A stretch of DNA of 32,000 nt from Candidatus Saganbacteria bacterium (GTDB taxonomy: Bacteria > Margulisbacteria > WOR-1 > JAKLHX01), in the NCBI GenBank assembly GCA_026387835.1, contig JAPLKZ010000007.1:124187-156186 (forward strand). The letters are read 5' to 3'. Position 1 is the first letter of the stretch. Every line of letters starts with the position of its first letter. The translations under genes and the position numbers were made by a program. The notes beneath the pieces are model-generated. The model was not told where the DNA came from. It ran no database searches and worked only from the letters and a program-made list of their open reading frames with translations. Positions 132 through 15,302 of this stretch are shown here, piece by piece.

Positions 132-1424
132 ATGGAAAAACTACTTGACAAGATAAGATCAAAAAAAGCAAATATAGCGATAATCGGCATGGGCTATGTG
201 GGGCTTCCGCTCGGCATCGAGATTGCCAAGATCGGGTTCAATGTCTTAGGGATAGACACGAGCAAGCCGAAGACAGAGAACCTGAACAAGGGCAACAGCC
301 ATGTTGAGGACGTAAAGAGCGAGGATATCAGGACTCTCCTCGGGCAGGGCAGGATATCTTTTTATGATAACCCCCAGGTGATCGAGAAAGCGGATGTGGT
401 CATAATCTGCGTGCCGACCCCGCTCCGCAAGACCGGGGACCCCGACATCTCTTTCATAACCTCCGCGGTCCAGGAGATAAAGGACCATATCCACGAGAAC
501 ATGCTTGTGATACTGGAGAGCACGACATTTCCAGGCACTACCGATGAAGTGGTCCGGCCGCAGATTGAAAGCTTCGGCTACAAGATCGGGGAGAACTTTT
601 TCCTGGCATTCTCTCCGGAAAGAGTGGACCCCGGGAACCCGGCGTATTACACGAAGAACATCCCTAAAGTGATCGGCGGGGTGGAAATCAAATCCGGGGA
701 AGCCGCGCAGGCCCTCTACGGCCAGGTCTTTGAAAAGACCATGCTGGTAAAGGACGCTAAGACCGCCGAAATGGTCAAGCTGCTCGAGAACACTTTCAGG
801 AACGTAAATATCGCGTTCATAAACGAGTTCTGCCAGATCTGCCACCAGATGAAGGTGGATGTGTGGGAGATAATCGAAACAGCAAAGACAAAACCTTTCG
901 GGTTCATGCCTTTCTATCCCGGGCCCGGCATCGGCGGCCACTGCATCACCACTGACCCGACATATCTTACCTGGAAAGCAAAATTCATAGGAGGGGATGT
1001 CCAGCTCATAAATCTTTCCACGCAGATAAACAGAGAGATGCCGGCTTATGTGGTAACAAGAGTGGAGCAGCTCATCGGCGATCTGAAAGACAAAAAAATA
1101 CTGCTGCTCGGCATGGCATATAAAAAAGATATTTCGGATATCAGGGAATCACCGGCGATCGACGTGTTCAGGCTGTTCAGGCAGTTAGGTTCAATTGCGG
1201 ATTACAGCGATCCGTATGTGCCGGAGCTGCATGACGAGGTGACCAGGGAATCATTCACCTCAAAAGAGCTTTCAAAGGAGATGATATCTTCTTATGACTG
1301 CGTGGTGCTCACGACCGACCATTCAAATTACGACCTCAAGATGATAGAGGACAGCGCGAAGAAGATATTCGATACAAGAAACGCTTTCAGGGGCGTTGTG
1401 TCGGATAAGATATACAGACTGTGA
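132..1424 (+). CDS. Nucleotide-sugar dehydrogenase (UDP-glucose/GDP-mannose dehydrogenase family; WbpA/WecC-like)
   Basis: N-terminal Rossmann motif IAIIGMGYVGLPLG, catalytic-Cys region GPGIGGHCITTDP, and a 430-aa length typical of the family. Confidence 0.85.
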   Translation: MEKLLDKIRSKKANIAIIGMGYVGLPLGIEIAKIGFNVLGIDTSKPKTENLNKGNSHVEDVKSEDIRTLLGQGRISFYDNPQVIEKADVVIICVPTPLRKTGDPDISFITSAVQEIKDHIHENMLVILESTTFPGTTDEVVRPQIESFGYKIGENFFLAFSPERVDPGNPAYYTKNIPKVIGGVEIKSGEAAQALYGQVFEKTMLVKDAKTAEMVKLLENTFRNVNIAFINEFCQICHQMKVDVWEIIETAKTKPFGFMPFYPGPGIGGHCITTDPTYLTWKAKFIGGDVQLINLSTQINREMPAYVVTRVEQLIGDLKDKKILLLGMAYKKDISDIRESPAIDVFRLFRQLGSIADYSDPYVPELHDEVTRESFTSKELSKEMISSYDCVVLTTDHSNYDLKMIEDSAKKIFDTRNAFRGVVSDKIYRL

Positions 1425-1445
1425 TATTTCACCTAAAGATCCGCT

Positions 1446-2048
1446 TCACTTCCTGTTTATGAACCACAAGAGAGTAGGGTAGTAAAGCTCCGTCCTTAGG
1501 CCGCCTTTCACGCCGGAATGGCTTCCGCCGGTCTTCACAGCTTCAACAGCTTCTCCGGTCGTATAGCCTTTTTCTTCTATTAAGTATTTCGCGATCACCA
1601 TCCCGGTCCTGTCAGCGCCCCACTTGCAGTGGATATAGACGGGGCCTTTCATAAGCTCTTTTATCTTTTTCCACTCTGATGGCGTAGGTACCTTCGCGAT
1701 GTGCATGGGCACGTGATACCTTTCGATGCCGGCCTTTTCAAGCAAAGAAGAGTATCTTGCCTGGACGGCCCTGGTATTTTCAAGATCTATAAAATGACGA
1801 ATGCCTTTCGACTTGAGATAATTTAATACCGATAAAACAGTCTCATCGCTTGCTTTAAGGTCTATTTCCGGGTCTAAAGGATGGCCTCCCGTGTGGATAT
1901 GGCCGTCGATGACGTGGTAATTGTAAGGCATCGGGCCGCTGCCGCTGACAAGGTTAGAAGGGTATTTCACGCAGACCGATGTCCCCGCAATGGAAGACAC
2001 CGAAAATATTAAGAGTAAAAAACAAACCGCGGCGGATTTTATTTTCAT
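1446..2048 (-). CDS. Secreted protein-tyrosine/dual-specificity phosphatase-like protein
   Basis: N-terminal signal peptide (MKIKSAAVCFLLLIFSVSSIAG) and a CX5R(T) P-loop, HCKWGADRTG. The minus-strand upstream sequence is TGCTAATAT-N6-ATG, with no SD. Confidence 0.7.
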   Translation of the reverse strand: MKIKSAAVCFLLLIFSVSSIAGTSVCVKYPSNLVSGSGPMPYNYHVIDGHIHTGGHPLDPEIDLKASDETVLSVLNYLKSKGIRHFIDLENTRAVQARYSSLLEKAGIERYHVPMHIAKVPTPSEWKKIKELMKGPVYIHCKWGADRTGMVIAKYLIEEKGYTTGEAVEAVKTGGSHSGVKGGLRTELYYPTLLWFINRK

Positions 2049-2084
2049 GGATTAATATTAGCATATTTAACCCTCACCCCTTAA

Positions 2085-2110
2085 CCCCTCTCCCTTGACA
2101 GGGAGAGGGG
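2085..2110. repeat. Perfect 10-bp stem hairpin (CCCCTCTCCC-TTGACA-GGGAGAGGGG), REP-like palindrome
   Basis: The arms at 2085-2094 and 2101-2110 are exact reverse complements. It lies between the divergent phosphatase gene and tRNA-Ile. Confidence 0.6.
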
Positions 2111-2120
2111 GGTAAAACAT

Positions 2121-3635
2121 CTAATGTGTTATAATTTTCATAGAAACAGATGCTGTAATGGGCTCATAGCTCAGCTGGCTAGAGCATGCGACTGATAATC
2201 GCAAGGTCGGTGGTTCAAGTCCACCTGGGCCCATTTTAGTTTCATTGCGAACTCCCGCACATGCGTTTTCTGAAATATTTTTCGGCGAAGGTTTTCTTCT
2301 GCGGCATTTTTTTGGGTGGGGGCAAAAAAATGCCGCAGGAACAGTTTCAGGGGTCTGATTTTCGGCGCAGTTATCAGGATATTTTAATATTACTTCGACG
2401 TTCTCCTTCGAATAAATTATCTTTTCGATGTGCTGTTTTATAATAATTCGTCTTTCAGTCATATCCCTATTAGCTGTCGATCCGGTTATGGTCTCCAGTA
2501 TCTGCCGGACTTTTTCGGAGGTGAACTGCAACGGAAAGGGCCCCGGTTCAAGTCCGCTTGACATGGGTTTAGGCGAATTATTGAGCGTGAAAATCAAACT
2601 GTCGAGATGTTGATTGTTTTTGGCTATATTATCAAGATAATCTATGACAAGCCTGTCCAGACGATCGACGCTGACCTGTCTGACATCACAAAAAGACAGG
2701 TCTCTTTTATTGATGCTTGTGCAACGATAATAAAAATATCTGACTCTCCTTGTATATCTCTTTTTATTTGTGAAGACTTCGCTCATAGTAGATCCGCAGC
2801 CTTTACAATGAAGTAATCCCGGAAATAACGCACAGTGAACGACTCTGCCGTATATTCTCTGTTTATGATGTTTCTGCGCTTCTTCAAACATTTCGGGAGA
2901 CACGATCGCTTCATGCAGGCCTTGATAGATATTTCCTTTGTGAAGGATCATCCCTTTATAGACGACATTTCTCAGCATGTCACATATTACTGTCTTTGAA
3001 AAAACATTGCCTTTTCTGTTGAACATATTTCCGGATTTCAAAGTATTGTAAACAGAATAAACCGATCCGGTGGAAAGATATGTTTCAAATATCTTCTTTA
3101 CTGTTTCGGAATGAACCGGATCGATCACGAGTTTTTTATCTTCCTTTTTATATCCGAACGGAGGCTTTCCTGAACTCCACATACCTTTTTTTGCCATTTC
3201 GGCCTTTTTGTCCCTGATCCTTTCACTTGTCAGCTCTCTTTCAAACTGGCCGAAAGTAAGCATGATATTCCTAAGAAGCCGACCCGACGGAGTGGAAGTG
3301 TCAAATCTCTCTGTTATAGAAATAAAGCTCGCGTTGTGTTTTTCGAGTATTTCTAAAAGATTGTAGAAATCTTTTGGGGATCTTGTGAGCCTGTCTATCT
3401 TGTATGAAATGACGACATCTATCTTGCCGTCCTGAATATCAGATAACATATCATTCAGTCCGGGACGGTCCGTATTCGCTCCGGAGTATCCTTCGTCCGA
3501 ATAAGCCTTGTAGACTTCAAAATCGTTCTGGCTTGATATGAACGATCTGATCTTTATTTGCTGCGCCTCGCAGGAATTGAACTCGACCTCGGCCTGAGAA
3601 TCTGAAGAAACCCTCGTATAGATAGCTGCTCTCAT
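2121..3635 (-). CDS. Large serine recombinase (resolvase catalytic domain, recombinase domain and zinc-ribbon domain)
   Basis: N-terminal MRAAIYTRVSSDSQ (catalytic Ser motif), a DRLTRS motif, and the zinc ribbon HCKGCGST...YYYRC. The last 60 or so codons run through the stem-loop and the antisense of tRNA-Ile, so the functional C-terminus is uncertain. Confidence 0.85.
   Translation of the reverse strand: MRAAIYTRVSSDSQAEVEFNSCEAQQIKIRSFISSQNDFEVYKAYSDEGYSGANTDRPGLNDMLSDIQDGKIDVVISYKIDRLTRSPKDFYNLLEILEKHNASFISITERFDTSTPSGRLLRNIMLTFGQFERELTSERIRDKKAEMAKKGMWSSGKPPFGYKKEDKKLVIDPVHSETVKKIFETYLSTGSVYSVYNTLKSGNMFNRKGNVFSKTVICDMLRNVVYKGMILHKGNIYQGLHEAIVSPEMFEEAQKHHKQRIYGRVVHCALFPGLLHCKGCGSTMSEVFTNKKRYTRRVRYFYYRCTSINKRDLSFCDVRQVSVDRLDRLVIDYLDNIAKNNQHLDSLIFTLNNSPKPMSSGLEPGPFPLQFTSEKVRQILETITGSTANRDMTERRIIIKQHIEKIIYSKENVEVILKYPDNCAENQTPETVPAAFFCPHPKKCRRRKPSPKNISENACAGVRNETKMGPGGLEPPTLRLSVACSSQLSYEPITASVSMKIITH
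2127..2135 (+). promoter_or_regulatory. Extended -10 promoter (TGTTATAAT) for tRNA-Ile
   Basis: TGn plus TATAAT at 2130-2135, about 25 nt upstream of the mature tRNA 5' end. Confidence 0.5.
2160..2233 (+). tRNA. tRNA-Ile (anticodon GAU)
   Basis: Manual cloverleaf: 7-bp acceptor stem GGGCTCA/TGGGCCC, D arm GCTC/GAGC, anticodon loop CTGATAA, T arm GGTGG-TTCAAGT-CCACC, discriminator A. No CCA is encoded. Confidence 0.9.
2234..2937. repeat. Direct repeat copy A (about 700 bp), homologous to 13859-14563
   Basis: Manual alignment gives roughly nine-tenths identity. Homology starts immediately after the tRNA and ends after GATAGATATTTCCT. Confidence 0.85.
2301..2336. other. Conserved perfect 14-bp stem-loop GCGGCATTTTTTTG-GGTGGGGG-CAAAAAAATGCCGC
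   Basis: The arms are exact complements. An identical copy lies at 13926-13961. It sits between the tRNA and the conserved end of the recombinase. There is no trailing U-tract, so it is not a canonical terminator. Confidence 0.6.
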
Positions 3636-3892
3636 ACACTTGTCCTCCTTTCGAATTTATTTAACCCCCTCTGTATCTCCCCCTTGATCCCTCGGCTCGC
3701 TTGCGCTCGCTCGGGACAAGCAGGGGAGCAAATCAAATTCTTCAATTCTGAAATTAATTCTCGGTGAGCATTGGACAAGTGTAGTGATCTAATGTAGCTT
3801 AGAAAACGCGGGCAACGGGACTTCTTAAAGCTATTACAATGTAAAGGGTTTAAACAATGCTCACAACATTGTGAAACTTTTATTTCAGACAT
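3632..3892 (-). CDS. Hypothetical small Cys-rich protein (86 aa); possible recombination accessory factor or non-coding spacer
   Basis: Strong RBS (GGGAGGTGAT) upstream of the ATG, and an ATGA overlap with the recombinase start. The C-terminal half is encoded by a GC-rich repeat-family copy (ACPERAQASRG), which weakens the coding call. Confidence 0.3.
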   Translation of the reverse strand: MSEIKVSQCCEHCLNPLHCNSFKKSRCPRFLSYIRSLHLSNAHRELISELKNLICSPACPERAQASRGIKGEIQRGLNKFERRTSV

Positions 3893-3894
3893 GA

Positions 3895-4443
3895 TTATAT
3901 CACCTCCCTATGAAAAACGAAACAATGACGAGCCAGATCAGGCGGCAGAACGGCCCCTCGACCCTGCTCGGGGTGAACCCCGCCGCCGCAAAGGAACACA
4001 ATGACAGGGACACCCCGGGAAACAGCATGACGGATGGTATAGAGAGAGCCGCGCGAAGGGCCGTGCAGGAAAGCAACGATGACAGAGGACGCGGAAACCA
4101 AACGCCTGTTGCGGCGGAGAAGCGCGGAGACGGCAACCTGACGGGGAGAACCAATGGAAGAAGAGCCCCAAACCACATTGCCGCCTGACCCGATAAACCG
4201 CTCAACCTGCGGACGGACGGAAAAAGGGAAGCCCGCGGCGGAAGACCAAGCCGAATAAACAACGCTACGGGAAGAAGCACCCTGACGAAGCACCGCAGAC
4301 AAAGCAAACTGATCAGCGCCCATGGCACCGCCGGAAGCCACACTAAAACCGCGAGCCAGAAGCAGGGACACGACATGATCAACGAGCGGAGCGAAACGGA
4401 CGGGAAGAGAACGGGAACCAATGACACCAACTGAATAGGACAT
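3895..4443 (-). CDS. DprA/Smf-like (SLOG/DUF2493-like Rossmann) protein, 182 aa, lysine-free
   Basis: The motif order is IGSR...SGGAMGADQFA...RRNRRLV...SRGSLYT...GVPV, as in the DprA Rossmann domain. AAGGAGG RBS 7 nt upstream of the ATG at 4443. The upstream part of the 3895-4515 ORF is discounted. Confidence 0.6.
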   Translation of the reverse strand: MSYSVGVIGSRSLPVRFAPLVDHVVSLLLARGFSVASGGAMGADQFALSAVLRQGASSRSVVYSAWSSAAGFPFSVRPQVERFIGSGGNVVWGSSSIGSPRQVAVSALLRRNRRLVSASSVIVAFLHGPSRGSLYTIRHAVSRGVPVIVFLCGGGVHPEQGRGAVLPPDLARHCFVFHREVI

Positions 4444-4648
4444 ATAACTGCACCTCCTTGAGATCCATGTAGCATTTTCCCGCCGCGCGGCACCCGGAGC
4501 GTAAGCGGAGGGCAAGGCTGCCTGAGCGAACCGAAGGCAGCCGCAGAGGGAGCGGACACGCGCGACGCCGAGCAGCTACGAAGGCGCGGACGAGGCGGAG
4601 CAAGTGGGAGCGACCTTGAAGCGCAAAGGCGGGAAAATGCTACAATGG
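4444..4648 (-). ncRNA. Structured A-poor 5' leader or ncRNA closed by a helix of about 20 bp
   Basis: The arms at 4465-4484 and 4628-4648 are reverse complements (16 contiguous bp plus 4 bp after a one-nt bulge) and enclose 143 nt with internal hairpins such as GGCTGCCT...AGGCAGCC. The 3' arm ends 6 nt before the SD of the DprA-like ORF. Confidence 0.45.
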
Positions 4649-4842
4649 AAAACCCGGAGAAGCACCCCTCATAGAAAGCAAAAATCGTTTGGTTGGGTTT
4701 GAAAAGGCACAGCGAAAAGTGGCATTTATTTGACAGAGGCAATAGAAGTCATAATTGTATTACGAGAGCGGAGATGACGCCTCCGCCGCCTCGCAAGGCT
4801 CGGCGACATCGGCGGAAAGAAACTTATCTTCTAATAAAGATC

Positions 4843-4879
4843 AGGCGGCTTGTCGCTACTTCGCAGCTCCAAGCCGCCT
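4843..4879 (-). terminator. 10-bp stem hairpin (AGGCGGCTTG...CAAGCCGCCT) followed on the minus strand by GATCTTTATT; possible terminator of a short transcript
   Basis: Perfect 10-bp arms with a 17-nt loop that can extend the stem. The U-tract is interrupted. Confidence 0.35.
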
Positions 4880-4907
4880 AACATCATCAATAGTTCAAAG
4901 TAATCCT

Positions 4908-4974
4908 AAAATGGTGCGAGCGGCCCACACCGCTACCATTACTCTGATTATACATAACGCATTCACGGCTGCAT
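4908..4974 (-). promoter_or_regulatory. Inverted-repeat copy A: promoter (-35 ATGCAG, -10 TATAAT) plus leader hairpin, reading leftward
   Basis: 4908-4952 is a 45-bp perfect reverse complement of 13734-13778. -10 at 4947-4952 and -35 at 4969-4974, with a 16-nt spacer. Confidence 0.6.
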
Positions 4975-4981
4975 CTTTATA

Positions 4982-5028
4982 TGGCGGTCGCATACCTTAG
5001 CCCCCAATATAAAAAATTGCGACCGCCA
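4982..5028. other. Hairpin with an 11-bp stem (TGGCGGTCGCA...TGCGACCGCCA) and a 25-nt loop
   Basis: Exact complementary arms at 4982-4992 and 5018-5028, located at the junction between inverted-repeat copy A and the phoB promoter. Confidence 0.4.
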
Positions 5029-5043
5029 ACCAGAAACAATAAT

Positions 5044-5087
5044 TTTACAAGTTCTTAATATAATATTCACATATGGAATGATATAAT
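5044..5087 (+). promoter_or_regulatory. Pho-box-like array (TTTACA, TTAATA, TTCACA at 11-bp phasing) plus extended -10 TGATATAAT
   Basis: Hexamers at 5044, 5055 and 5066. -10 at 5082-5087, 6 nt before the ATG at 5094, with no SD. The 7-bp inverted repeat ATGGAAT/ATTCCAT (5073-5079 and 5086-5092) overlaps the -10. Confidence 0.5.
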
Positions 5088-5093
5088 TCCATT

Positions 5094-5780
5094 ATGAAAA
5101 CCGTCCTGGTAGTAGACGATGAAAAGGACATTGTGGAAGCGATTGAATACAACCTTTCCAAAGAAGGATACAAGGTACATAAAGCTTTTGACGGGGATAC
5201 AGGGCTTTTGACCGCGCAGAACAAGTTGCCTGATATTGTGATACTAGACCTTATGCTGCCCAAAATGGACGGTACCGAAGTTTGCAAAAGGTTGAAGAAA
5301 GATGCCAAAACAGCAAATATACCGGTTATCATGCTTACCGCAAAAAGTGAAGAAACTGACAAGATTGTTGGACTTGAGATAGGGGCAGACGATTACATGA
5401 CCAAACCTTTCAGCATGAGGGAGCTCCTGGCAAGAATAAAAGCTATATTGAAAAGATACGGGACAGGTGTCGAAAAAACGCAGAGTATTTTGAAATATCC
5501 GGGACTTGAAATAGATGTTGACCAGCATATTGTGACGGTGATTGGAAAGAAATTAGAATTAACGGCGAAGGAATTCCTGTTATTAAAATATTTGGCCGAG
5601 AACAAAGAAAGGGTCTACAGCAGGGACAAGCTTCTTGATAGTGTCTGGGGTATCGATGCGGCAATCGAAACGCGTACTGTTGATGTCCATATGAGACGGC
5701 TCAGGGAAAAATTAAAGTCAGCATCGCATTATTTAAAGACGCTCCACGGCGTAGGATATAAATTCTCGGAAAAGAGCTGA
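5094..5780 (+). CDS. phoB: OmpR-family response regulator, PhoB/PhoP-like
   Basis: Receiver domain (VLVVDDE...DLMLPKMDG...KP) and a winged-helix output domain (LTAKEFLLLKYL...VDVHMRRLREKL). Adjacent to a PhoR-like kinase and pst genes. Confidence 0.85.
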   Translation: MKTVLVVDDEKDIVEAIEYNLSKEGYKVHKAFDGDTGLLTAQNKLPDIVILDLMLPKMDGTEVCKRLKKDAKTANIPVIMLTAKSEETDKIVGLEIGADDYMTKPFSMRELLARIKAILKRYGTGVEKTQSILKYPGLEIDVDQHIVTVIGKKLELTAKEFLLLKYLAENKERVYSRDKLLDSVWGIDAAIETRTVDVHMRRLREKLKSASHYLKTLHGVGYKFSEKS

Positions 5781-5783
5781 TAC

Positions 5784-7559
5784 ATGTTCAAAAGCATCAG
5801 GCCCGTTATTTTTCTTGTCCTTACAGGGATCGTGCTGATCTCTTTCCTGCTCCTTTCTTTGATCGCCCTTCCTTCAATAAAGGACCTTGCTGTTTCCCAG
5901 ATAAAAGATCAGCTTTTGGTTCAAGCAAACATGAGCAGGGAAGATTTTTCAAATCTTCTGCTTTCAAATGCTGTAAAGGCAGTTTCGCAGGAAAAAGCAG
6001 TTGAAATCGCAAAAAATACGGGAAGCCGGGTCACTTTGATAAACAAAGACGGGGCGGTCCTCGCTGACTCGGACGAACCTCTTTCAAAGATCAAGGCGAT
6101 GGAAAATCACCTTACAAGACCGGAAGTAGTAGAAGCCGCGTCAGGAAAATACGGCTCTTCTATAAGGTACAGTGAAACAACAAGAAGGGATCAAATATAT
6201 CTTGCCTTGGCTTTAAGAGAAAAAAACGGCAGGATCCTCGGTTATCTGAGGATGTCCGATCCTTCTGAGTATATTCCCAAGATCACATTAAAATTCTACA
6301 GGTCACTGGCTCTTGCGCTTCTGTTAGCGTTGGCTGTCTGTGTTATAACAAGCTATTTTATCTCGATGATATTCACAAGGCCGTTAAGGCGGCTTGTAGA
6401 AACTTCCGAAAAGATATCCGAAGGCCGTTTTCCGGCTACGATAATGAAGAAATCCTGGTTTGAGATAGGCTCGCTCGAAAGAGCTGTCGAGAAGATGAGC
6501 TTAAAGCTTTCAGATCTTTTCAATAATATTAAAAAACAGCAGGGAAGCTCAGGCGCAGTCTTCTCGGGAATGAAGGAAGGCGTTGTGGTCCTTGATAAAG
6601 ACGGAAAGATACACACGGTCAATCCCGCAGTTGAAAAGATCTTCGGTCTGCACGGTGATGATCTGACAGGAAAAACGGTCCTTGAAGTGCTGCGGAACAA
6701 CGAGATAGCGGCTATAACGGATAGGTCCATTAAATTGGGAAAAGAGATAGAGGAGGAAATCGATATATTGACCCCTGTAGAAGCATCATTCGCGGTTTAT
6801 GCCGGGCCGATCAAAGATAAGGACGGGGATATCTTCGGCGGAATATGCGTTCTTCATGATATAACAAAGCTAAAAAAGCTTGAGAGGTACCGCTCTGAAT
6901 TTGTCGCGAATATCTCTCATGAACTAAAAACACCTTTAACGGCTATAAAGAACTATGCGGAGACGCTGCTCAACAGTGCTCCGGACGATAAGGAAAAGAG
7001 CAGGGAATTTATCCTGAAGATCGAAAAACACTCCGACAATCTTTCTTCATTGATTGACGACATTCTCGAGCTTTCAAGGCTTGAGTCCGGAGTGAAATCT
7101 GGCGAGCCGAAGAGCGTCAATATATCAGAGGTCATATCCAGATCGGTTGAATTGCTTTTGGAAAAGGCAAACAAAAAAGGCATTGTTATAAATGTTGAAT
7201 GTGACGGTCAGCTGTCCATTAGAAGTATCAAAGACCATCTTTTCAGGGCAGTTTCAAATCTTATAGACAATGCGGTGAATTATTCTGAAAAAGACAGCAT
7301 GGTAAGCATAAAATGTGTTAGAAAAGACAATAATATAGAGATCTCTGTTTCAGACAACGGCATCGGTATACCCAAAGAAAACATCGGCCGCATCTTTGAG
7401 AGGTTTTACCGTGTTGATCCGGGCAGATCAAGAGATTCCGGTGGAACAGGTCTTGGCCTTTCTATCGTCAAACATATAATGGAACTTCACGGCGGCAGGG
7501 TCTCTGTTCAAAGCGAGGCCGGAAAAGGCTCGACATTCACGCTTATATTCCCTTTGTAA
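5784..7559 (+). CDS. phoR: Sensor histidine kinase, PhoR-like (two TM segments, HAMP, PAS, HisKA and HATPase)
   Basis: H-box FVANISHELKTPLT, N-box LIDNAVNYS, and G-boxes DNGIGIP and GGTGLGLSIV. Confidence 0.85.
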   Translation: MFKSIRPVIFLVLTGIVLISFLLLSLIALPSIKDLAVSQIKDQLLVQANMSREDFSNLLLSNAVKAVSQEKAVEIAKNTGSRVTLINKDGAVLADSDEPLSKIKAMENHLTRPEVVEAASGKYGSSIRYSETTRRDQIYLALALREKNGRILGYLRMSDPSEYIPKITLKFYRSLALALLLALAVCVITSYFISMIFTRPLRRLVETSEKISEGRFPATIMKKSWFEIGSLERAVEKMSLKLSDLFNNIKKQQGSSGAVFSGMKEGVVVLDKDGKIHTVNPAVEKIFGLHGDDLTGKTVLEVLRNNEIAAITDRSIKLGKEIEEEIDILTPVEASFAVYAGPIKDKDGDIFGGICVLHDITKLKKLERYRSEFVANISHELKTPLTAIKNYAETLLNSAPDDKEKSREFILKIEKHSDNLSSLIDDILELSRLESGVKSGEPKSVNISEVISRSVELLLEKANKKGIVINVECDGQLSIRSIKDHLFRAVSNLIDNAVNYSEKDSMVSIKCVRKDNNIEISVSDNGIGIPKENIGRIFERFYRVDPGRSRDSGGTGLGLSIVKHIMELHGGRVSVQSEAGKGSTFTLIFPL

Positions 7560-7574
7560 ATATTTTACTCCCAG

Positions 7575-7617
7575 TTAACAAATCCTTCATCAAGCCGTAA
7601 CACCCCGATACGATAAT
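7575..7617 (+). promoter_or_regulatory. Pho-box-like array (TTAACA, TTCATC, GTAACA at 11-bp phasing) plus -10 GATAAT
   Basis: Hexamers at 7575, 7586 and 7597. -10 at 7612-7617, 9 nt after the last box. Confidence 0.45.
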
Positions 7618-7792
7618 AGTAGTGTGATACCAAAGAAGAAGACGATCTACTATCACAGGAAAAGGAGGTGCAAAAACCGGTTAGGGCTTGCATTGCTTGC
7701 TGTCTTAGCGGAAAAGAGAAAACAAGGACGCTCTTTTCTTGATCTGGCGGCAGGAAGAATGATGATGATGATCAATAAAAAGGAGGAATCAG

Positions 7793-9016
7793 ATGTTCAA
7801 TAAGATAACGTGTTTTTTGTTGATGACAGTTTTGACTGCAAGCGCTATGGCAGCGCCCGCGGCAAAGAAGCTGCAACCCGCTAAAGCGAAAAAAGCGGTT
7901 GTAAAAGCAGGAAAAAAAGCAGCACCGCAAATGAAAGCCTCGCCTAAGATGAAATCTCAGGAGAACAAGGCAGAGGATACAACGGAAGATATCAGGGACG
8001 ACGTGAACAAGGCTGTGTCTGAGCTAAAAGGCCAGATAGACACAGTGAAAGCCGATAATAGCGACGCGAAGGTCGGTGGGGTGATATTTTTCAGGTGGCA
8101 GAGCAAATCAAGCGGAGCAGCATTTAACAATTTTGATATTGACAGAGCGTATGTTGACATAAAAAAGAAGCTTGGCGGCGGAGCAGCAATGAGGGTGACT
8201 CTTGATGTGGCAAGGCTCAGCACTGCTTTGGATACGGCGAAGACAACCCAGAACCTGTTCGATTATCTGAAATATGCTTATGTGGATATTCCTATAGATT
8301 TAGCTAATATGCAGGTAATCCCGATGTCGTTGACCGCAAAAGTCGGTCTTCAGCACACCGTCTGGATCGACTGGATGGACAAGATCATGGATATAAGGTT
8401 CATCGCGAAGAGCCTAGTGGATAATGAAGGTCTTATGTCGTCGGCAGATTTCGGTATCGGAGCAACAGGAAAATTTACATTGCCGATGGTCCCGGAAATC
8501 GAGTATCATGCTACCCTTTTAAACGGTACGGGATATAAAGCCGTTGAGACCAATAACAGGAAAGACCTGTCTTTGAGATTGAATTCGGATCTCTATTCAG
8601 ATGCGACATACGGTAAAGTAACGGCAGGTACATTTTTGTCTTTATTGGGAGAGGACAGCACTTTGGTCAACAAAGACGGCACAAAAGCCGGAGCAGCTGT
8701 TGCATACAGGCATGATCTGGGGACCGTCTTCGGGGAGTATTACAGAGCGAAAGGCGGAGTTGCCGGAACGAGCATAGGAGGATTATTCAATGTCCAGCCG
8801 CTGGTGGAATGGCTGCCTCTGAGCCTTTTTGCAAGGGCGGATGTTTATAGTCCTAACCTTAATACGACCGCAACGACTGATGTTAAAAGGTCATTCTACG
8901 GGATAGTTTGCCAGATAAACAAAGATATCCGTCTCGCAGTCGACCAGCAGACATCCCAGACAGGGTCCGGTGCACAGTCAAGTGTTCTGTACGTCCAGAT
9001 GGAGACGAAGTATTAA
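7793..9016 (+). CDS. Putative outer-membrane porin, possibly phosphate-selective given its Pho-regulon context
   Basis: Signal peptide ending AMA-AP, a Lys/Ala-rich N-terminal region, alternating beta-strand-like sequence and a C-terminal aromatic residue (..METKY). AAGGAGG RBS. Confidence 0.55.
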   Translation: MFNKITCFLLMTVLTASAMAAPAAKKLQPAKAKKAVVKAGKKAAPQMKASPKMKSQENKAEDTTEDIRDDVNKAVSELKGQIDTVKADNSDAKVGGVIFFRWQSKSSGAAFNNFDIDRAYVDIKKKLGGGAAMRVTLDVARLSTALDTAKTTQNLFDYLKYAYVDIPIDLANMQVIPMSLTAKVGLQHTVWIDWMDKIMDIRFIAKSLVDNEGLMSSADFGIGATGKFTLPMVPEIEYHATLLNGTGYKAVETNNRKDLSLRLNSDLYSDATYGKVTAGTFLSLLGEDSTLVNKDGTKAGAAVAYRHDLGTVFGEYYRAKGGVAGTSIGGLFNVQPLVEWLPLSLFARADVYSPNLNTTATTDVKRSFYGIVCQINKDIRLAVDQQTSQTGSGAQSSVLYVQMETKY

Positions 9017-9048
9017 TTAACAAATATTTAACAAATGCGTAATATTAT
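9017..9048 (+). promoter_or_regulatory. Pho-box-like pair (TTAACA-N5-TTAACA) plus -10 TATTAT upstream of pstS
   Basis: Hexamers at 9017 and 9028 (11-bp phasing). -10 at 9043-9048, 9 nt after the second box. Confidence 0.5.
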
Positions 9049-9085
9049 GTTAATGGATAAAGATGATAATAAAAAAGGAGGCCAA

Positions 9086-10093
9086 ATGATGATAAAGAAA
9101 GTTTTTGCGGCGCTGTCAATAATGGCAGTAATTTTTACGGGCATGTCCGCTGCCGCTGACCTGAACGGGGCAGGCGCGACATTCCCGTACCCGATCTATT
9201 CGAAGTGGATGTCCGAGTATAACAAGATAAAGGGAATACAGGTCAATTATGCGTCGATCGGCTCCGGCGGAGGCATCAGACAGTTCACTGCCGGTGTTGT
9301 GGATTTCGGCGCGACCGATGCTTATATGACAAACGATGAGATATCTAAGGTGAGTGGCGGGGTCGTACACGTGCCGACAGTGATGGGAGCGGTCGCAGTG
9401 GTTTTCAATAACGGTCTCAAGACTCTAAATCTTGACGGAAAAACCCTTGCAGCGATATTCATGGGAGACATCAAGAAATGGAACGATGAAAGGATAGCGG
9501 AACTCAATCCCGGAATATCGCTTCCAGATTCAAGCATACTTATAGCCCACAGATCTGATGCCAGCGGGACCACGAGCATCTTCACAGGATATCTTGCAAA
9601 AGTGAGCACCGACTGGGCTGCAAAAGTCGGAGCCGGGAAAGCGGTCGCGTGGCCGGTAGGTGTCGGTGCAAAGGGAAATGAAGGAGTGACTGGAGCGGTA
9701 GTGAACAACAGTAACTCCATCGGGTACGTCGAGCTGGCTTACGCGAAACAGAATAACCTGCCTATGGCGGCAATAAAGAACCGTTCGGGAAATTATGTGT
9801 TACCGTCCGTAAGCGGTGTCACGGCAGCGGCGGATAAAGGCATGTCAAAGATACCCGCAGATTTCAGGGGCGAAATACTGAACATGCCGGGAAGCGCAAG
9901 CTATCCGATATCCGGACTGACATGGATAGTTGTAAGAAAAGAAAATTCGAACGCTGAAAAAACAAAACTACTTAAGGATTTTCTCGGCTGGTCGCTGACA
10001 AAAGGTCAGGATTATGCAGGAGATCTGTATTATGCTCCTCTGCCGCAGTCATTAAGGAATAAAGTCGTTGCAGCTTTGGAGACGATAAAATAG
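9086..10093 (+). CDS. pstS: Phosphate ABC transporter substrate-binding protein PstS
   Basis: GAGATFPYPIYSKW motif and a signal peptide. The start at 9086 is chosen for its AAGGAGG RBS, and because the ATG at 9035 lies inside the predicted promoter. Confidence 0.9.
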   Translation: MMIKKVFAALSIMAVIFTGMSAAADLNGAGATFPYPIYSKWMSEYNKIKGIQVNYASIGSGGGIRQFTAGVVDFGATDAYMTNDEISKVSGGVVHVPTVMGAVAVVFNNGLKTLNLDGKTLAAIFMGDIKKWNDERIAELNPGISLPDSSILIAHRSDASGTTSIFTGYLAKVSTDWAAKVGAGKAVAWPVGVGAKGNEGVTGAVVNNSNSIGYVELAYAKQNNLPMAAIKNRSGNYVLPSVSGVTAAADKGMSKIPADFRGEILNMPGSASYPISGLTWIVVRKENSNAEKTKLLKDFLGWSLTKGQDYAGDLYYAPLPQSLRNKVVAALETIK

Positions 10094-10095
10094 TT

Positions 10096-11019
10096 TTGAA
10101 AAATGATCCGAACAAGGCCGACAGGATCTATAGAACAATAGCAGTAATATTTGCCGCGGTCATCCCTGTGATGTCCGCGGCGGTATTTTTGATGCTGGCG
10201 CAAAAATCCATCCCGTCAATAATTGCTTTCGGCCCGGGTTTTCTTGTCAGATCGGTCTGGGACCCGGTAGCTGAAATATACGGAGCTTTGCCGTTCATTT
10301 ACGGGACGCTTCTTTCTTCATTTATCGCACTGGTGATAGCCGTGCCGCTCGGGCTCGGATGCGCTGTCTATCTTTCAGAAGTTTCAAAGTCAAAGTTCAA
10401 AGAATATATTGCAACGATGGTGGACATGCTGGCTGCGATACCTTCTGTAGTGTACGGTCTTTGGGGTATATTTGTTCTCGGTCCTTTCCTTGTGCAGTAT
10501 ATCCAGCCTTTCCTGGCAAAATATTTCGGTTTCATCCCTCTTTTTCAGGGGCCGCCTATGGGGCTCAGCATGATGACAGGAGGAGTGATACTCGCGATAA
10601 TGATACTTCCGACCATTACTTCCGTATCAAGAGAGATACTTCAAGTTGTCCCTAACAGTCTGCGTGAATCCGCAATGGCGCTCGGTGCGACAAAATGGGA
10701 AACGGTTAGGACCGCGGTGCTTCCTCCGGCCGTGTCAGGTATAGTCGGGGCTGTGATACTCGCTCTTGGAAGGGCAGTTGGTGAGACGATGGCAATAACG
10801 ATGGTGATAGGTAACAGGCCGGAGGTGTCGGCTTCGTTATTTGCTCCCGGATACACGCTGGCATCGGTAATAGCAAATGAATTTGCGGAAGCCTCGAGCC
10901 CGATGAACCTTTCAGCAATGTTCGAAATAGGATTGATTCTCTTACTCTTGACGGTCGTGATCAACGGACTTGCAAGGATACTGATATGGAAAATAGCGGG
11001 CAAAGGTCTTATTCAATAA
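10096..11019 (+). CDS. pstC: Phosphate ABC transporter permease PstC
   Basis: Polytopic membrane protein with an EAA-like loop (RESAMALGATKWETV). TTG start. Standard operon position. Confidence 0.85.
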   Translation: MKNDPNKADRIYRTIAVIFAAVIPVMSAAVFLMLAQKSIPSIIAFGPGFLVRSVWDPVAEIYGALPFIYGTLLSSFIALVIAVPLGLGCAVYLSEVSKSKFKEYIATMVDMLAAIPSVVYGLWGIFVLGPFLVQYIQPFLAKYFGFIPLFQGPPMGLSMMTGGVILAIMILPTITSVSREILQVVPNSLRESAMALGATKWETVRTAVLPPAVSGIVGAVILALGRAVGETMAITMVIGNRPEVSASLFAPGYTLASVIANEFAEASSPMNLSAMFEIGLILLLLTVVINGLARILIWKIAGKGLIQ

Positions 11020-11840
11020 GAAAGTTGAAGGACAGGCTTTTTATATACGCAGCAGTCTTCTGCGCTGGGGCCGCAGTCCTTCCTTTGATACTTCTTCTGG
11101 GATACGTCATTTTTAAAGGCGCATCTTCTTTGACTCTGAGCTTTTTCACTCATGTGCCTGTTCCGGTCGGTGAGAATGGCGGCGGCATCGGCAACGGAAT
11201 AATAGGTACTTTAATGATAGTAGGTCTTGGATGCGTTTTCAGCCTGCCAATCGGAATATTTTCAGGCATCTGGCTTTCAGAGTGGGGAAAAGGAAAGACA
11301 GGATTCATTGTTAGGTACTGCGTTGACGTGATGAGTGGTGTTCCCACAATTGTCCTTGCTTTGTTCTCTTATACCGTTTTTGTCCTTACAATGCACCGGT
11401 TTTCGGCGATCGCGGGCGGTTTTGCGGTGGCAATGATAATGCTTCCATATATAACAAAGACGACCGAAGAAATGCTGAAAATGGTCCCAAGGACGCTCAG
11501 GGAATCAGCGCTTGCTCTGGGTATTCCGGAATGGAGGGTCTCTTTAAGCGTTGTTGTAAGATCGGCATGGAGCGGAATATTTACCGGGGTGATGCTCGCG
11601 GTCGCAAGAGCGGCCGGAGAAACGGCCCCGCTATTATTCACGGCCTTCAACAGCATGTACTGGAACTTTATGCCGGATCAGCCGACAGCCTCCATGACCG
11701 TGCAAATATACACTTATGCGATATCTCCTTATGAGCAATGGCATAATATGGCCTGGGCCGGATCACTTGTGCTAATCGGTATAGTTCTTTTTGTTACAAT
11801 ATTTGTAAGGAAATTCTCAAAGAGGGTGAACTTTGGATAA
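10986..11840 (+). CDS. pstA: Phosphate ABC transporter permease PstA
   Basis: Membrane permease with [14 protein letters not shown]. Overlaps the end of pstC. Confidence 0.85.
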
Positions 11841-12594
11841 AGAAAAGATAAAAGTAAAAGAACTTAACGCCTGGTTCGGGGCTAAGCAGGCGCTTAAAAA
11901 TATTAATGTTTCTATTGCGGAGAACATGGTTACTGCAGTCATCGGCCCTTCAGGTTGCGGCAAGTCCACTTTTATCCGGTGCGTGAACAGGATGCACGAG
12001 ACTGTCATTGACGCAAGGATGAGCGGAGAAATATCGCTTGAAGGAATCATCATCAGCGATCCATCGGTTGATCCGGTCGGGATCCGGCGAAAAATAGGCA
12101 TGGTCTTTCAAAAGGCGACCCCTTTCCCGACAATGTCCATCTATGACAATGTTGCGGCAGGTCTCAAGTTGAACGGACTTAACAACAGAAAAAAACTTGA
12201 TGAAGCGGTCGAGCACAGCCTGAAACAGGCGGCCTTGTGGGAAGAAGTTAAAGACATCCTGTTCTGCCCCGGGAACTCTCTTTCCGGCGGTCAGCAGCAA
12301 AGGCTTTGCATAGCAAGGGCATTGGCGGTAAAACCTGAAGTTCTTCTGCTTGATGAGCCCTGCTCAGCGCTTGACCCGATCTCCACGGGGAAAATTGAAG
12401 ACCTGATCGCGGAGCTTAAAAAATCGATCACAATACTGATAGTTACCCATAATATGCAGCAGGCAGCGCGTGTTGCGGACTTTACCGGATTCTTTCTTCT
12501 GGGCGAGCTGATAGAGTTTGATATCACGAAAAAAATATTCACCGCTCCTTCGGATAAAAGGACAGAGGATTATATTACAGGAAGATTCGGATAA
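11833..12594 (+). CDS. pstB: Phosphate ABC transporter ATP-binding protein PstB
   Basis: Walker [13 protein letters not shown] signature [14 protein letters not shown] and Walker B LLLDEP. TTG start. Confidence 0.9.
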
Positions 12595-12605
12595 GGAGGA
12601 CAATC

Positions 12606-13277
12606 ATGAGCGAACGGACAATGGATACGGAACTTTCAGAATTGAACGGATTAATAATGATGATGGCAAATATGGTCGAGACTTCCGTTGCCATGAGCAT
12701 CGAAGCTGTCAAGAGAAGGGATGAAAAGATGTCGGATAAAGTCATAGAGGATGATAAGGAAGTCGACCAACTTGAGCTTGAGATAGACGATAAATGCATC
12801 ACTATTCTTGCGACAAGACAGCCGATGGCAGCTGATTTAAGATTTATCGCGACCGCAATGAAGATCGTAACAGACCTTGAAAGGATAGGGGATCTTTCAG
12901 TTGATATCTCTCAAAGGAACAAAGAACTTTTAAACTGGCCGCTCCTTAAACCTCTTATAGATACTCCAAAACTTGCGGAGATAGCAAGGCAGATGATAAG
13001 AGAGAGTATCGATTCTTTTGTAAAAAGAGACGGTTCAAGGAGCCTTAAGATACACGACCTTGAAAAAGAATCTGACAGATTAAAGGACCTGATAACCGAC
13101 GAGCTGATAGACATAATGACAAAGGATTGTTCCGCCGTACCAAAAGCTATCCCGCTTGTACTTATTGCAAGGCATCTCGAGCGCATCTGCGACCACGCGA
13201 TGAATATTGCCGAAGATGTTGTTTACATGGTTGAGGCGAAGGTCGTCAAGCATCTGCATGAACAAGGAGGTGGGTAA
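12606..13277 (+). CDS. phoU: Phosphate signalling complex protein PhoU
   Basis: Two PhoU repeats, with DLERIGD and HLERICDHAMNIAE motifs. Follows pstB. Confidence 0.9.
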   Translation: MSERTMDTELSELNGLIMMMANMVETSVAMSIEAVKRRDEKMSDKVIEDDKEVDQLELEIDDKCITILATRQPMAADLRFIATAMKIVTDLERIGDLSVDISQRNKELLNWPLLKPLIDTPKLAEIARQMIRESIDSFVKRDGSRSLKIHDLEKESDRLKDLITDELIDIMTKDCSAVPKAIPLVLIARHLERICDHAMNIAEDVVYMVEAKVVKHLHEQGGG

Positions 13278-13278
13278 G

Positions 13279-13581
13279 ATGGTAAATGAAGGCCCATGGT
13301 ATTTAAAACAGTCTCCCCTGGGAGCTGGGTATCAGCACTTTTCAAATACTGCAAAACAGGCTTCCATACTGGATTCGAAGACAAAAGAACTAATACGCGT
13401 CGCGATAGCCTCCGTTTTCCGGTGCCGGCATTGCACGGAGCATCATATTAAGGACGCGCTAGCGGCGGGAGCGACAAAGCAGGAAATATCTGAAACGATC
13501 CTTCTCTCAGCTTTACAGGCTGCGGGGACACAGCTAAACTGGCACAAAGAGTTTTTTGAAGAAAAACTAACAGATAAATAA
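13279..13581 (+). CDS. Carboxymuconolactone decarboxylase / AhpD-like family protein
   Basis: CRHCTEHH motif (the CxxC of the CMD family). The start at 13279 is preferred because a GGAGGTG RBS lies just upstream, rather than the ORF start at 13207, which overlaps phoU. Confidence 0.65.
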   Translation: MVNEGPWYLKQSPLGAGYQHFSNTAKQASILDSKTKELIRVAIASVFRCRHCTEHHIKDALAAGATKQEISETILLSALQAAGTQLNWHKEFFEEKLTDK

Positions 13582-13710
13582 GCAGGCGATTTTTGCGGAA
13601 GGCCCTCCAGAGGCGGGTAAAGGTTTGGGGAGGGAGTCCTTCGCTTTGCTCAGGATAAACTCCAACCGCCCCCAAGATAGGAAGGCTACAGCCTACCCAG
13701 ATCTTTCTTC

Positions 13711-13778
13711 TTGCAGCCGTGAATAGTGTTAGGTATAATCAGAGTAATGGTAGCGGTGTGGGCCGCTCGCACCATTTT
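13711..13778 (+). promoter_or_regulatory. Inverted-repeat copy B: tRNA-Ala promoter (TTGCAG-N17-TATAAT) plus leader hairpin
   Basis: -35 at 13711-13716 and -10 at 13734-13739. Hairpin AATGGTaGCGG...CCGCtcgcACCATT. 13734-13778 is a perfect inverted match of 4908-4952. Confidence 0.65.
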
Positions 13779-13785
13779 CATTAGT

Positions 13786-13858
13786 GGGGGCATAGTTCAG
13801 CTGGTAGAACGTCTGCTTTGCAAGCAGAAGGTCCGCGGTTCGAGTCCGCGTGCCTCCA
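13786..13858 (+). tRNA. tRNA-Ala (anticodon UGC)
   Basis: Manual cloverleaf: acceptor stem GGGGGCA/TGCCTCC with the G3:U70 Ala identity pair, anticodon loop TTTGCAA, T arm CGCGG-TTCGAGT-CCGCG. No CCA is encoded. Confidence 0.9.
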
Positions 13859-14563: not shown

Positions 14564-14619
14564 TATTGCTCAGGGCGAGCTTCAAAAAAGGCGCTGTTTT
14601 ATGATATAATTCAACCACT

Positions 14620-14850
14620 ATGAAAACAAAACAGGCAAAACAAAAAACGAAACCCGTATATGTGAATGGATTGTCCTTGAAAAGGCCCGCGGTACTGATC
14701 GACGCCAGGGAGTACGAAGGGATGAAGGAAACCCTTGACATATTGATGGAAGACCCCGGTATCTCCAAGGAGATCAGAATAGCCGAAAAAGAACTTAAAA
14801 CGGGTAAAACCGTTTCCTGGGAAAAACTGAAGAATGAACTCAAAGTATGA
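14620..14850 (+). CDS. Type II antitoxin, Phd/YefM-like
   Basis: 76-aa protein with ...VLIDAREYEGMKETLDIL... typical of the Phd/YefM N-domain. It overlaps the downstream toxin gene. TGATATAAT lies 9 nt upstream of the ATG. Confidence 0.65.
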   Translation: MKTKQAKQKTKPVYVNGLSLKRPAVLIDAREYEGMKETLDILMEDPGISKEIRIAEKELKTGKTVSWEKLKNELKV

Positions 14851-15094: not shown

Positions 15095-15115
15095 TCATAA
15101 ATTATTGGGCTTTCT

Positions 15116-15203: not shown

Positions 15204-15210
15204 GCGGGGC

Positions 15211-15238: not shown

Positions 15239-15246
15239 TCGGGCCG

Positions 15247-15284: not shown

Positions 15285-15302
15285 CCATAGTAAGGAGTGA
15301 CA

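Follow-up and report, generated by a model that had tools for sequence, protein, structure and literature searches.

What is inserted at the tRNA-Ile gene’s 3′ end in a genome of Candidatus Saganbacteria, and where does the inserted DNA end? The question is raised by a stretch of 32,000 nt of contig JAPLKZ010000007.1 (assembly GCA_026387835.1), the whole of which we call the window and to whose positions all coordinates refer. Here a gene for a large serine recombinase (LSR) runs into the tRNA-Ile gene from the opposite strand, and the 9-mer CCATTTTAG recurs where homology between repeated sequences starts or stops. A preliminary description took two of the 9-mers, at 2231-2239 and 4906-4914, for the attL and attR of a serine-recombinase mini-element of about 2.7 kb. 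Having compared the window with 80 related genome loci fetched via the LSR gene (labelled L0xx), we favour a different answer: the window probably holds an LSR-driven island of ~11.5 kb (2234-13774), and the 2.7-kb unit is only its invertible recombinase module.

A 9-mer at three homology breakpoints

We called tRNA genes with ARAGORN and Rfam, and protein families with Pfam and PHROG. The 9-mer occurs exactly three times in the window, at 2231-2239 and 13856-13864 on the plus strand and at 4906-4914 on the minus strand; 0.34 copies are expected by chance, and none of 100 shuffles gave three. The first copy lies at the end of tRNA-Ile(GAT) (2160-2233, plus strand), the integration target, and the second at the end of tRNA-Ala(TGC) (13786-13858, plus strand), which lies downstream of that island and has in turn served as target for another insertion. 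Both tRNA genes are intact (70.5 and 72.3 bits, respectively). The ‘CCA’ of the 9-mer is not an encoded CCA end: it consists of acceptor bases C71 and C72 and discriminator A73, which in tRNA-Ile are positions 2231-2233. The 9-mer at attL is thus composite, its CCA coming from the tRNA and its TTTTAG being the first six bases of the element.

As the preliminary description had noticed, each of the three copies sits at a homology breakpoint. The DNA following the two tRNAs is ~92% identical between copy 1 (2234-2937) and copy 2 (13859-14562), and the homology begins exactly at the tRNA CCA. Copy 2, on the minus strand, comprises an arm of subtype A (see below) and the C-terminal ~235 codons of an LSR gene, inside which it breaks off at 14562; as judged by this homology, a second, truncated element of the same lineage occupies the 3′ end of tRNA-Ala. 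The third breakpoint is the end of an inverted repeat pairing 4908-4973 with 13778-13712, which extends over 67 bp at 95.5% identity rather than the 45 bp reported initially, and which does stop at the 9-mer. Beyond this point the repeat copy on the tRNA-Ala side goes on as TTTTCATTAGT. At both ends of the module GAACT is found at an equal offset from the 9-mer, as described before.

Empty sites in relatives and the extent of the island

The far end of the insertion is located by relatives that carry the site both occupied and empty. We use ‘H’ for a cassette consisting of a -10 box and a hairpin that ends in CCA, H′ for its inward copy and ‘solo H’ for its outward copy; slashes mark junctions. 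In L026 the tRNA-Met and tRNA-Pro genes form an intact pair 145 nt apart (...GGGCCCA/ATACCCCGCCGGAGGCGGGGAATGACAAATG). In L022 tRNA-Met runs directly into an element arm (...GGGCCCA/TTTTATCG), and 6.6 kb from tRNA-Met a solo H is joined to the homologous trailer (...GAGCCA/CCATCCCGACCGGGGGTCGGAATGGAATGACAAATG), which is followed by tRNA-Pro. The same two genomes also offer the reciprocal case: the 3′ end of tRNA-Val(tac) is unoccupied in L022 and carries an element in L026. The unit that inserts therefore runs, between a tRNA end and the original trailer, through one arm, the LSR module and the other arm, and then, past a junction, through the inward H, a hairpin, variable DNA and the outward H. 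CCA and a terminator hairpin come after the solo H in L020, and would be the original trailer of the L020 tRNA-Ile.

While precise insertion relative to an unoccupied site is seen directly for L022 and L026, it extends to the window by analogy. On that analogy the window island would span 2234-13774, ~11.5 kb, and would split an ancestral Ile-Ala tRNA pair whose 11-nt spacer (13775-13785, plus strand), deduced from the L022/L026 empty sites, is TTTTCATTAGT, the B′ side of attB. An intact pair of tRNA-Ile and tRNA-Ala genes, 12 nt apart, is present in L041. The distal junction would accordingly be 13774/13775, in what the preliminary description had treated as the partner leader, and the insertion would include the cargo rather than measure ~2.7 kb. 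The target sequence needs a similar correction. tRNA 3′ ends, and a hairpin ending in CCA, do adjoin the element as had been proposed, but the TTTTAG that follows belongs to the element, and only CCA 71-73 is common to the targets: unoccupied tRNAs in relatives have other trailers (CCA/ATACCCC and CCA/TTAGTTTT), and TTTTA- follows the discriminator only where an element of the window’s subgroup is present.

The variable cargo of the window (5029-13663, plus strand) encodes, by Pfam, a PhoB-like regulator, a PAS/HAMP histidine kinase, a 407-aa open reading frame (ORF), PstS, PstC, PstA, PstB, PhoU and a CMD-family protein. Relatives carry unrelated genes at the same position: an AlwI-type restriction-modification system with AAA_13, a caspase, trypsin-like and HATPase proteins, an ACR3-type arsenic set, or CrcB with enolase. 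A conserved integration module is thus combined with variable cargo, and by analogy phoBR-pstSCAB-phoU would have arrived as cargo. Neither a tyrosine recombinase nor a primase or helicase was detected by Pfam among the genes of 2234-13774.

Contigs with exact protein matches to the LSR, DprA-like gene, phosphatase and response regulator led to independent Logan unitigs of several samples, and these match three junctions of the window at 100%: tRNA-Ile/element, hairpin/element, and 4924-13735, which links the inward H across the cargo to the outward H. What the window shows is therefore no assembly artefact.

Terminal arms and H cassettes

The module is bounded by two terminal arms. The left arm (IRL, subtype A; 2234-2450), the putative element-side P′ arm, contains a hairpin (2299-2338) and has the LSR tail encoded on its minus strand; its CGAACT (2248-2253) lies 14 nt after A73. 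The right arm (IRR, subtype B; 4700-4911, plus strand) is an inverted pseudo-copy of the LSR tail that translates to LYYESGDDASAASQGSATSAERNLSSNKDQAACRYFAAPSRLTSSIVQSNPKM. The plus-strand peptide of 4755-4913 matches the C-terminal tails of LSRs of the family (tblastn, E 1e-11 to 1e-4), and the right arm matches both arms of the elements in L020, L022, L023, L026 and L031. Across the family the terminal inverted repeats measure 130-275 bp, are mostly 90-100% identical (in at least 20 elements) and reach 3-9 nt into the tRNA end; the LSR tail beside the tRNA makes up one arm, and the DprA-like gene or the LSR has the other on its upstream side. The arms in the window are of different subtypes, having in common only the TTTTAG-bearing first 9 nt and GAACT, and the window copy is therefore a recombinant.

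Beyond the right arm lies H′ (4912-4975, minus strand), which reads into the module and has TATAAT at 4947-4952 and a hairpin at ~4912-4941 ending in CCA; the 9-mer at 4906-4914 is made of the hairpin end (...CACCA) and the TTTTAG of IRR. An H lies outside the far arm in 15/15 elements examined, at different tRNAs and in several phyla. The order of the cassette is constant: a -10 box (TATAAT, TAGAAT or GATAAT), 8-10 nt, (A/G)GTTYGA(G), ~15 nt, and the junction. The stem of the H hairpin varies in sequence among genomes with its pairing kept, and its 3′ strand ends at CCA. In the Margulisiibacteriota/Saganbacteria group H is followed by a second hairpin with a conserved loop, ‘hp’ (4982-5028; TGGCGGTCGCA ... 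TGCGACCGCCA; alignment of 9 elements), which is the last conserved sequence on the module side: homology between the window and L020 stops at 5029. As H stays with the element across genomes and phyla, the H side of 4906-4914 is not host DNA, and this site (‘site-2’) is therefore an internal attP-like copy and not attR. The preliminary description had assumed host DNA outside both 9-mers; the DNA in question, H′ with ‘hp’, is conserved with the element, and H′ is duplicated at its distal end.

That duplicate is the solo H (13711-13774, plus strand), directly upstream of the tRNA-Ala spacer: TTGCAG, 17 nt, TATAAT (13734-13739) and a hairpin whose CCA is 13772-13774. It is 95.5% identical to H′, has a fold z-score of -3.1, and would form the element side of attR. 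A solo H inverted relative to H′ and 95-100% identical to it is found 2.6-6.5 kb away in L019, L020, L022, L023 and L026, and 8.7 kb away in the window. A scan of metagenomes for the H-box pattern returned only the source contig of L020 and one further solo H. We also considered the H hairpin as a tRNA remnant, and rejected this: a 5′ acceptor partner is missing, and ARAGORN does not call a tRNA at this place.

H′ would serve both as the element-side (P) arm and as the promoter and 5′ stem-loop of the module operon; the promoter function is suggested by the conserved position of TATAAT. In a JGI metagenome locus (L109, 1002-1100) a solo H is directly followed by a ribosome-binding site and a protein-coding ORF, an arrangement that fits an outward H driving whatever lies downstream of the insertion. 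The loop of ‘hp’ (~TTATTAGAGTGGGGGNCTAAGGTA) is kept also in L019, L020, L022, L023, L025, L026, L027 and L031, and the hairpin does not have the form of a canonical terminator; it could bind a protein, or serve as an origin or for transfer, and together with the DprA-like gene it hints at a single-stranded DNA stage.

Geometry of the att sites

A four-way comparison in relatives of attB, attL, attR and the internal attP-like copy places the crossover, putatively an exchange of attP with attB at a 2-bp core that yields attL and attR, within or next to CCA 71-73. Counting A73 as 0, H and tRNA agree in every pair only at positions -2 to 0 (CC or GC, then A). With 11 elements pooled, the best dyad centre relative to A73 is -2.5 for H/arm sites and -0.5 for tRNA/arm sites. 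The GTTYG of H and the GTTCG of the tRNA T-arm both mirror the CGAAC of the arm, the former being 4 nt more distant from the junction. The model for LI integrase reportedly puts the zinc-ribbon motif ~5 bp further out in attP than in attB, and in the light of that spacing the offset of GTTYG indicates that H behaves as the element-side P arm, and H/arm as attP. The T-arm and acceptor 3′ strand of tRNA-Ile would be the host (B) arm of attL. The identical inverted 9-mers that had suggested an attL/attR pair are what two inverted copies of one element arm would give, unlike a canonical attL and attR with a non-palindromic core.

A recombinase gene that ends in its target

The 504-aa product of the LSR ORF (2121-3635, minus strand) has the Pfam domains PF00239 Resolvase (1.4e-39, residues 3-153), PF07508 Recombinase (2.7e-14) and PF13408 Zn_ribbon_recom (1.5e-9), and matches PHROG integrase (2.8e-110), with PHROG invertase matches secondary. 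By its domains the protein is a large serine recombinase, in agreement with the preliminary description. In the catalytic domain, residues R8, S10, D81, R82 and R85 are invariant across the 31 homologues of our protein alignment A2 (30 of them from the database). The nearest solved structure is the N-terminal domain of TP901-1 integrase, and the TnpX N-terminal domain is also among the PDB matches. Identity to LSRs of the phage collection is at most 37%; the closest database proteins are 72% and ~60% identical, many coming from Candidatus Margulisiibacteriota, and the viral collection contributed only two relatives (48-51% identity), both at contig ends. To go by that collection, the family is not evidently viral.

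The ORF has no stop codon inside the element: it passes through the hairpin at 2299-2338 and the antisense strand of tRNA-Ile, and stops at 2121. The element thus encodes the LSR down to 2234, and the last 37 codons and the stop are antisense tRNA-Ile and host DNA. This is the rule in the family, the LSR ORF being open across the junction, through the ~200-bp terminal arm, in 40/45 relatives (~2% of loci are expected by chance) and ending in antisense tRNA or, in flipped copies, in antisense H. Lacking a stop of its own, the LSR therefore has a C-terminus that depends on the DNA across the junction. Most of the 31 aligned homologues end in ‘G[LFIV]EP...’, the antisense translation of the tRNA T-arm, and ~10 residues before this end they have a near-invariant V, usually as ‘VR’. 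The conserved ‘VR’ is encoded by C[GA]AAC[TC], that is, by the GAACT of the preliminary description.

The LSR gene also contains an internal stretch resembling a tRNA T-arm, GGCCCCGGTTCAAGTCCGCTTG (2530-2560, and 14155-14185 in the truncated copy), which encodes ‘SGLEPGP’. G-x-E-P is nearly invariant at this position family-wide (alignment A2), and the stretch may have been left behind by an earlier read-through into a tRNA, or may be there by coincidence.

A range of tRNA targets across uncultivated phyla

The fetched loci come from Margulisiibacteriota, Saganbacteria, Patescibacteria, Omnitrophota, Planctomycetia, Ignavibacteria, Aminicenantes, Nitrospirota, Elusimicrobiota and others. A convergent tRNA gene at the LSR 3′ end was found in 44/80 loci, the tRNAs being Met, Ile, Glu, Lys, Val, Leu, Tyr, Asn, Gln, Arg, Ser, His and Asp. 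In one locus (L028, 1931-2350) the element adjoins the 3′ end of transfer-messenger RNA (tmRNA), again with 14 nt between discriminator and CGAACT, and the tRNA-like domain of tmRNA is therefore also a target. C[GA]AAC[TC] begins 11-15 nt past the called tRNA end in 33/45 loci, compared with 1.3 in shuffles. Some LSR clades are confined to one tRNA (Asn, Tyr, Gln or Glu), and others have mixed targets: Lys and Val for LSRs that are 88% identical, and Ile and Ala in the window. Several genomes hold multiple copies of the element. From sequence comparison, then, this is a family of LSR islands that insert at tRNA positions 71-73 and at tmRNA ends and that is widespread across uncultivated phyla.

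Both orientations of the module

The module has the tRNA on its upstream side in L031, L053, L068 and L074, and for L031 an H is seen next to the LSR tail. Compared with L029 and L071, which have a syntenic tRNA-Tyr flank, L031 carries the module inverted. An orientation census gave 44 unflipped and 4 flipped modules. Furthermore, 6/30 aligned database homologues end in ‘..LIIPN..’, the antisense translation of the TATAAT region of H. Both isomers of the module thus exist in relatives, to go by their junctions, with a strong orientation bias, and a segment bounded by inverted repeats is found both ways round at the same locus, across genomes rather than within one population. In this respect the invertible unit of the preliminary description is borne out. 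Flipping could be due either to the LSR or to homologous recombination between the long arms.

One inversion scenario, in which the internal site recombines with a second tRNA, was discarded: it predicts a module between two tRNAs and a solo H preceded by ‘hp’, and neither was seen.

A proposed mechanism and its alternatives

Putting these observations together, we propose the following order for the window: tRNA-Ile, attL, left arm, LSR, an 86-aa ORF, the DprA-like gene, right arm, internal junction, H′, ‘hp’, cargo, solo H, attR, 11-nt spacer, tRNA-Ala. A circular form would carry attP as H/arm, and the LSR would swap strands within or next to the CCA common to H and the tRNA end, leaving the tRNA intact up to its discriminator. 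The outward H would then give a promoter and a 5′ stem-loop to the downstream DNA, here tRNA-Ala. The module would be bounded by attL and by the inverted attP-like copy H′/right arm, probably the module promoter, which would allow the module to flip, via the LSR or via homologous recombination between the arms; a flip would change both the promoter driving the LSR and the peptide that ends it. Specific junctions are predicted: an empty attB (2233/13775) reading ...GGGCCCA TTTTCATTAGTGGGGG; a circle attP (13774/2234) reading ...CGCACCA TTTTAGTTTCATTGCG, distinguishable from the internal site only because the arms differ; and, for the flipped module, tRNA-Ile/TTTTAGGATTAC (2233/4911 reversed) and H′/TTTTAGTTTC. 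The mini-element of the preliminary description would instead predict a 2233/4912 join, GGGCCCA/TGGTGCG.

Several observations weigh against this scheme. We found no empty site, circle junction or flipped isomer for the window organism: scanning metagenomes for the pattern that an unoccupied Ile-spacer-Ala site is predicted to show gave 0 matches, and the Logan unitigs all have one arrangement, 100% identical to the window and breaking only at repeats, with no alternative junction. The search for such products proposed by the preliminary description has thus succeeded for relatives, with empty sites and the inverted isomer, and not for the window organism. Being a recombinant, the window copy may have lost the ability to flip or excise. 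Genes of the pho/pst kind typically belong to the core genome, and the composition of the cargo is host-like. The distal junction at tRNA-Val(tac) of L026 is less clean than that at tRNA-Met, with ~1 kb of extra DNA, and no solo H was found within the 8-kb flank in L025, L029, L042 and L063. As for the promoter, a consensus promoter scan does not call H, its -35 TTGCAG matches 3/6, and the H hairpin followed by TTTT was scored as terminator-like. Finally, an intact resident attP copy beside an expressed LSR would be unusual.

Could the 2.7-kb LSR module (2234-4911) nevertheless be a complete mobile element? Its circle would then have a palindromic attP formed from both arms (...CTAAA AT TTTAG...), and it would target a tRNA 3′ end that adjoins an H hairpin in inverted orientation, the core being a palindromic AT or TA that permits insertion either way round. 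The module is indeed the conserved, inverted-repeat-bounded unit in all relatives, both orientations occur, and attL (GGGCCC-AT-TTTAG) and attR (CTAAA-AT-GGTGCG) formally share a palindromic AT. Yet H′ and ‘hp’ travel across phyla and would have to pre-exist at every target, while 0/77 tRNAs are directly followed by an inverted H (a limited sample, all loci having been fetched via the LSR), and the L022/L026 empty sites join the tRNA to its native trailer and not to H. Moreover, with GTTYG 4 nt further out than in the tRNAs, H resembles an arm of the attP type and not a mimic of a tRNA, and the 44:4 orientation bias speaks against an orientation-free core. To our knowledge natural LSR cores are non-palindromic, which also counts against it. 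We therefore regard a complete 2.7-kb element as unlikely.

We think it quite unlikely that the module is instead a domesticated inversion switch that moves nothing and either flips between the tRNA and H′ promoters or stays fixed, the pho/pst genes being host DNA caught between H copies through old rearrangements. The host-like GC content and skew of the cargo, the housekeeping character of pho/pst, the single arrangement in all samples and the mismatched arms of the window copy would all agree with such a switch. Against it, the flanks (Ile ... spacer-Ala; Met ... trailer-Pro) are ordered and oriented as expected from simple insertion and not from inversions, relatives have unrelated accessory genes at the same position, and the presence of similar modules at many tRNAs and in many phyla, with multiple copies per genome, requires that the family be mobile.

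That the 9-mer is merely a common tRNA trailer or terminator sequence unrelated to element borders, a refuting possibility raised by the preliminary description, has next to no probability: it is T-rich as many trailers are, and the H hairpin with TTTT is terminator-like, but its count is far above expectation, all copies lie exactly at homology breakpoints, and TTTTA- is seen only with an element of the subgroup, other trailers following unoccupied tRNAs. The 9-mers, in short, do mark recombination junctions, with the empty sites of relatives confirming the tRNA side.

Beyond the ~11.5-kb island that we favour, a bolder proposition can be framed, whose parts taken jointly we consider doubtful: that the family is a new class of serine-integrase island. 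Its LSR would read the generic T-arm/acceptor end of essentially any tRNA or tmRNA, so that many sites and phyla are open to it. Each island would have two inverted attP copies, one of which stays intact after integration as a self-binding promoter/operator and flip site. The stop-less C-terminus of the LSR would reveal whether the element is integrated (a tail of antisense tRNA) or else circular or flipped (a tail of antisense H), and so control directionality without a separate factor. And the outward H would restore transcription of the genes cut off by the insertion.

Relation to known systems

The window family resembles LSR elements and prophages such as TP901-1, phiC31, Bxb1, A118 and SPbeta in its three-domain enzyme, its short att sites with quasi-dyad arms, an arm motif set further from the centre in the element-side arm than in the host-side arm, and precise insertion. 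It differs from phage LSRs in sequence (at most 37% identity), in its many tRNA and tmRNA targets and in its 130-275-bp terminal inverted repeats, and from known LSR elements in keeping a second intact attP-like copy and in placing the recombinase stop codon outside the element. LSRs usually target protein-coding genes, tRNA targets being the habit of tyrosine integrases, and an LSR family using the last bases of many tRNAs and of tmRNA runs counter to this pattern. With Tn4451 and Tn5397 (TnpX/TndX) the family has in common an LSR as the only mobility enzyme of a small element, more than one target and a putative circular intermediate. The Tn4451/Tn5397 ends are GA dinucleotides, and we know of no long inverted repeats, tRNA-end targeting or internal attP copy in these transposons.

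The Hin/Gin/Cin/Pin switches and invertons are similar in having a serine-recombinase gene in or near an inverted-repeat segment, two orientations, and switching between promoter and gene. Hin-type invertases have ~190 aa, a C-terminal helix-turn-helix and enhancer dependence, while the window enzyme is a 504-aa LSR for which no enhancer/Fis logic is known; furthermore, one of its sites is a host tRNA end, and the unit is part of a mobile island. A precedent for the read-through ORF is myxophage Mx8, where the att site of intP/attP reportedly lies in the 3′ end of the integrase gene, so that integration alters the C-terminus; Mx8 Int is said to be a tyrosine recombinase. The likeness is that LSR ORFs of the window family cross the junction in 40/45 loci, and the difference that their stop comes from antisense tRNA or antisense H.

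The nearest concept to the window island is the tycheposon, which is likewise a small tRNA-integrated island with a conserved integration module and variable, ecologically relevant cargo. Tycheposons were described in Prochlorococcus, and many carry replication genes; together with cryptic elements, 910/937 use tyrosine recombinases and only the rest an LSR (Hackl et al., bioRxiv 10.1101/2020.12.28.424599). The text of that study (bioRxiv 10.1101/2020.12.28.424599) describes no inverted-repeat architecture of this kind, ‘inverted repeat’ having a single match, in the reference list, in a search not aimed at a flipping module or an outward H cassette. The window island departs from the tyrosine recombinase of most tycheposons and from their frequent replication genes. 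The full-text literature searched contains no description of tRNA-end-targeting LSR islands of such architecture, and as far as that literature goes the family is previously undescribed.

The family gives a handle on the exchange of accessory genes (restriction-modification, arsenic and fluoride resistance, phosphate uptake) among uncultivated bacteria with small genomes, and an LSR aimed at a near-universal tRNA feature could become a portable integration tool where no engineered landing pads exist. The resident attP copy, the great length of the inverted arms and a reading frame closed by target DNA suggest testable ideas on how LSR expression and directionality are controlled. For annotation, the lesson is that ‘recombinase’ ORFs ending in peptides of the G[LFIV]EP type read antisense tRNA.

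Other features of the window

Two further genes belong to the module. The DprA-like protein (182 aa; 3895-4443, minus strand; DNA_processg_A fold, PF02481, 8e-12) is encoded by the first module gene, and its gene lies upstream of the LSR in 14 loci of Margulisiibacteriota/Saganbacteria type. The Cys-rich 86-aa ORF (3632-3892, minus strand), whose stop overlaps the LSR start, is kept in L017, L018, L045 and L020 and has no family match in Pfam or PHROG. Upstream of both lies a structured leader (4447-4700, minus strand), with a 17-bp stem (4468-4484/4630-4646) around ~145 nt and a fold z-score of -2.66; its segment at ~4607-4664 is conserved in relatives (blastn: L017, L018, L026, L031 and others), and Rfam at a relaxed threshold over 2100-5150 returned only the tRNA, with no family for the leader.

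Past the truncated copy 2, the region 14611-19751 encodes a Phd/ParE toxin-antitoxin pair, a nucleotidyltransferase, a patatin-like phospholipase and a Schlafen/AlbA_2-HATPase_c_4 protein, and looks like the defence-type cargo of a decayed second island. The patatin ORF contains a third match to CCA-N14-CGAACT (16496-16518), which has no tRNA-like flank and which we regard as a chance match. Short GC-rich repeats of the type GGCTTCGTCAAAGCTTGTCCCGAGCGAAGTCGAGGGAGC, REP-like and in both orientations, occur at 3688-3721, 15149-15194, 16312-16351 and 21780-21818, one of them between the LSR and the region of the 86-aa ORF. An 82-nt direct repeat with 87% identity (17216-17297 and 20630-20711) lies across the ends of two unrelated-looking genes.

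Finally, one Logan unitig from run ERR15302166 (L012, equal to window 1169-2233) ends in ...GGGCCCACCA, which is tRNA-Ile with a post-transcriptional CCA. This end corresponds to the mature tRNA, and some public runs therefore hold RNA-derived reads; to judge from this unitig, tRNA-Ile is expressed and matured despite the insertion.

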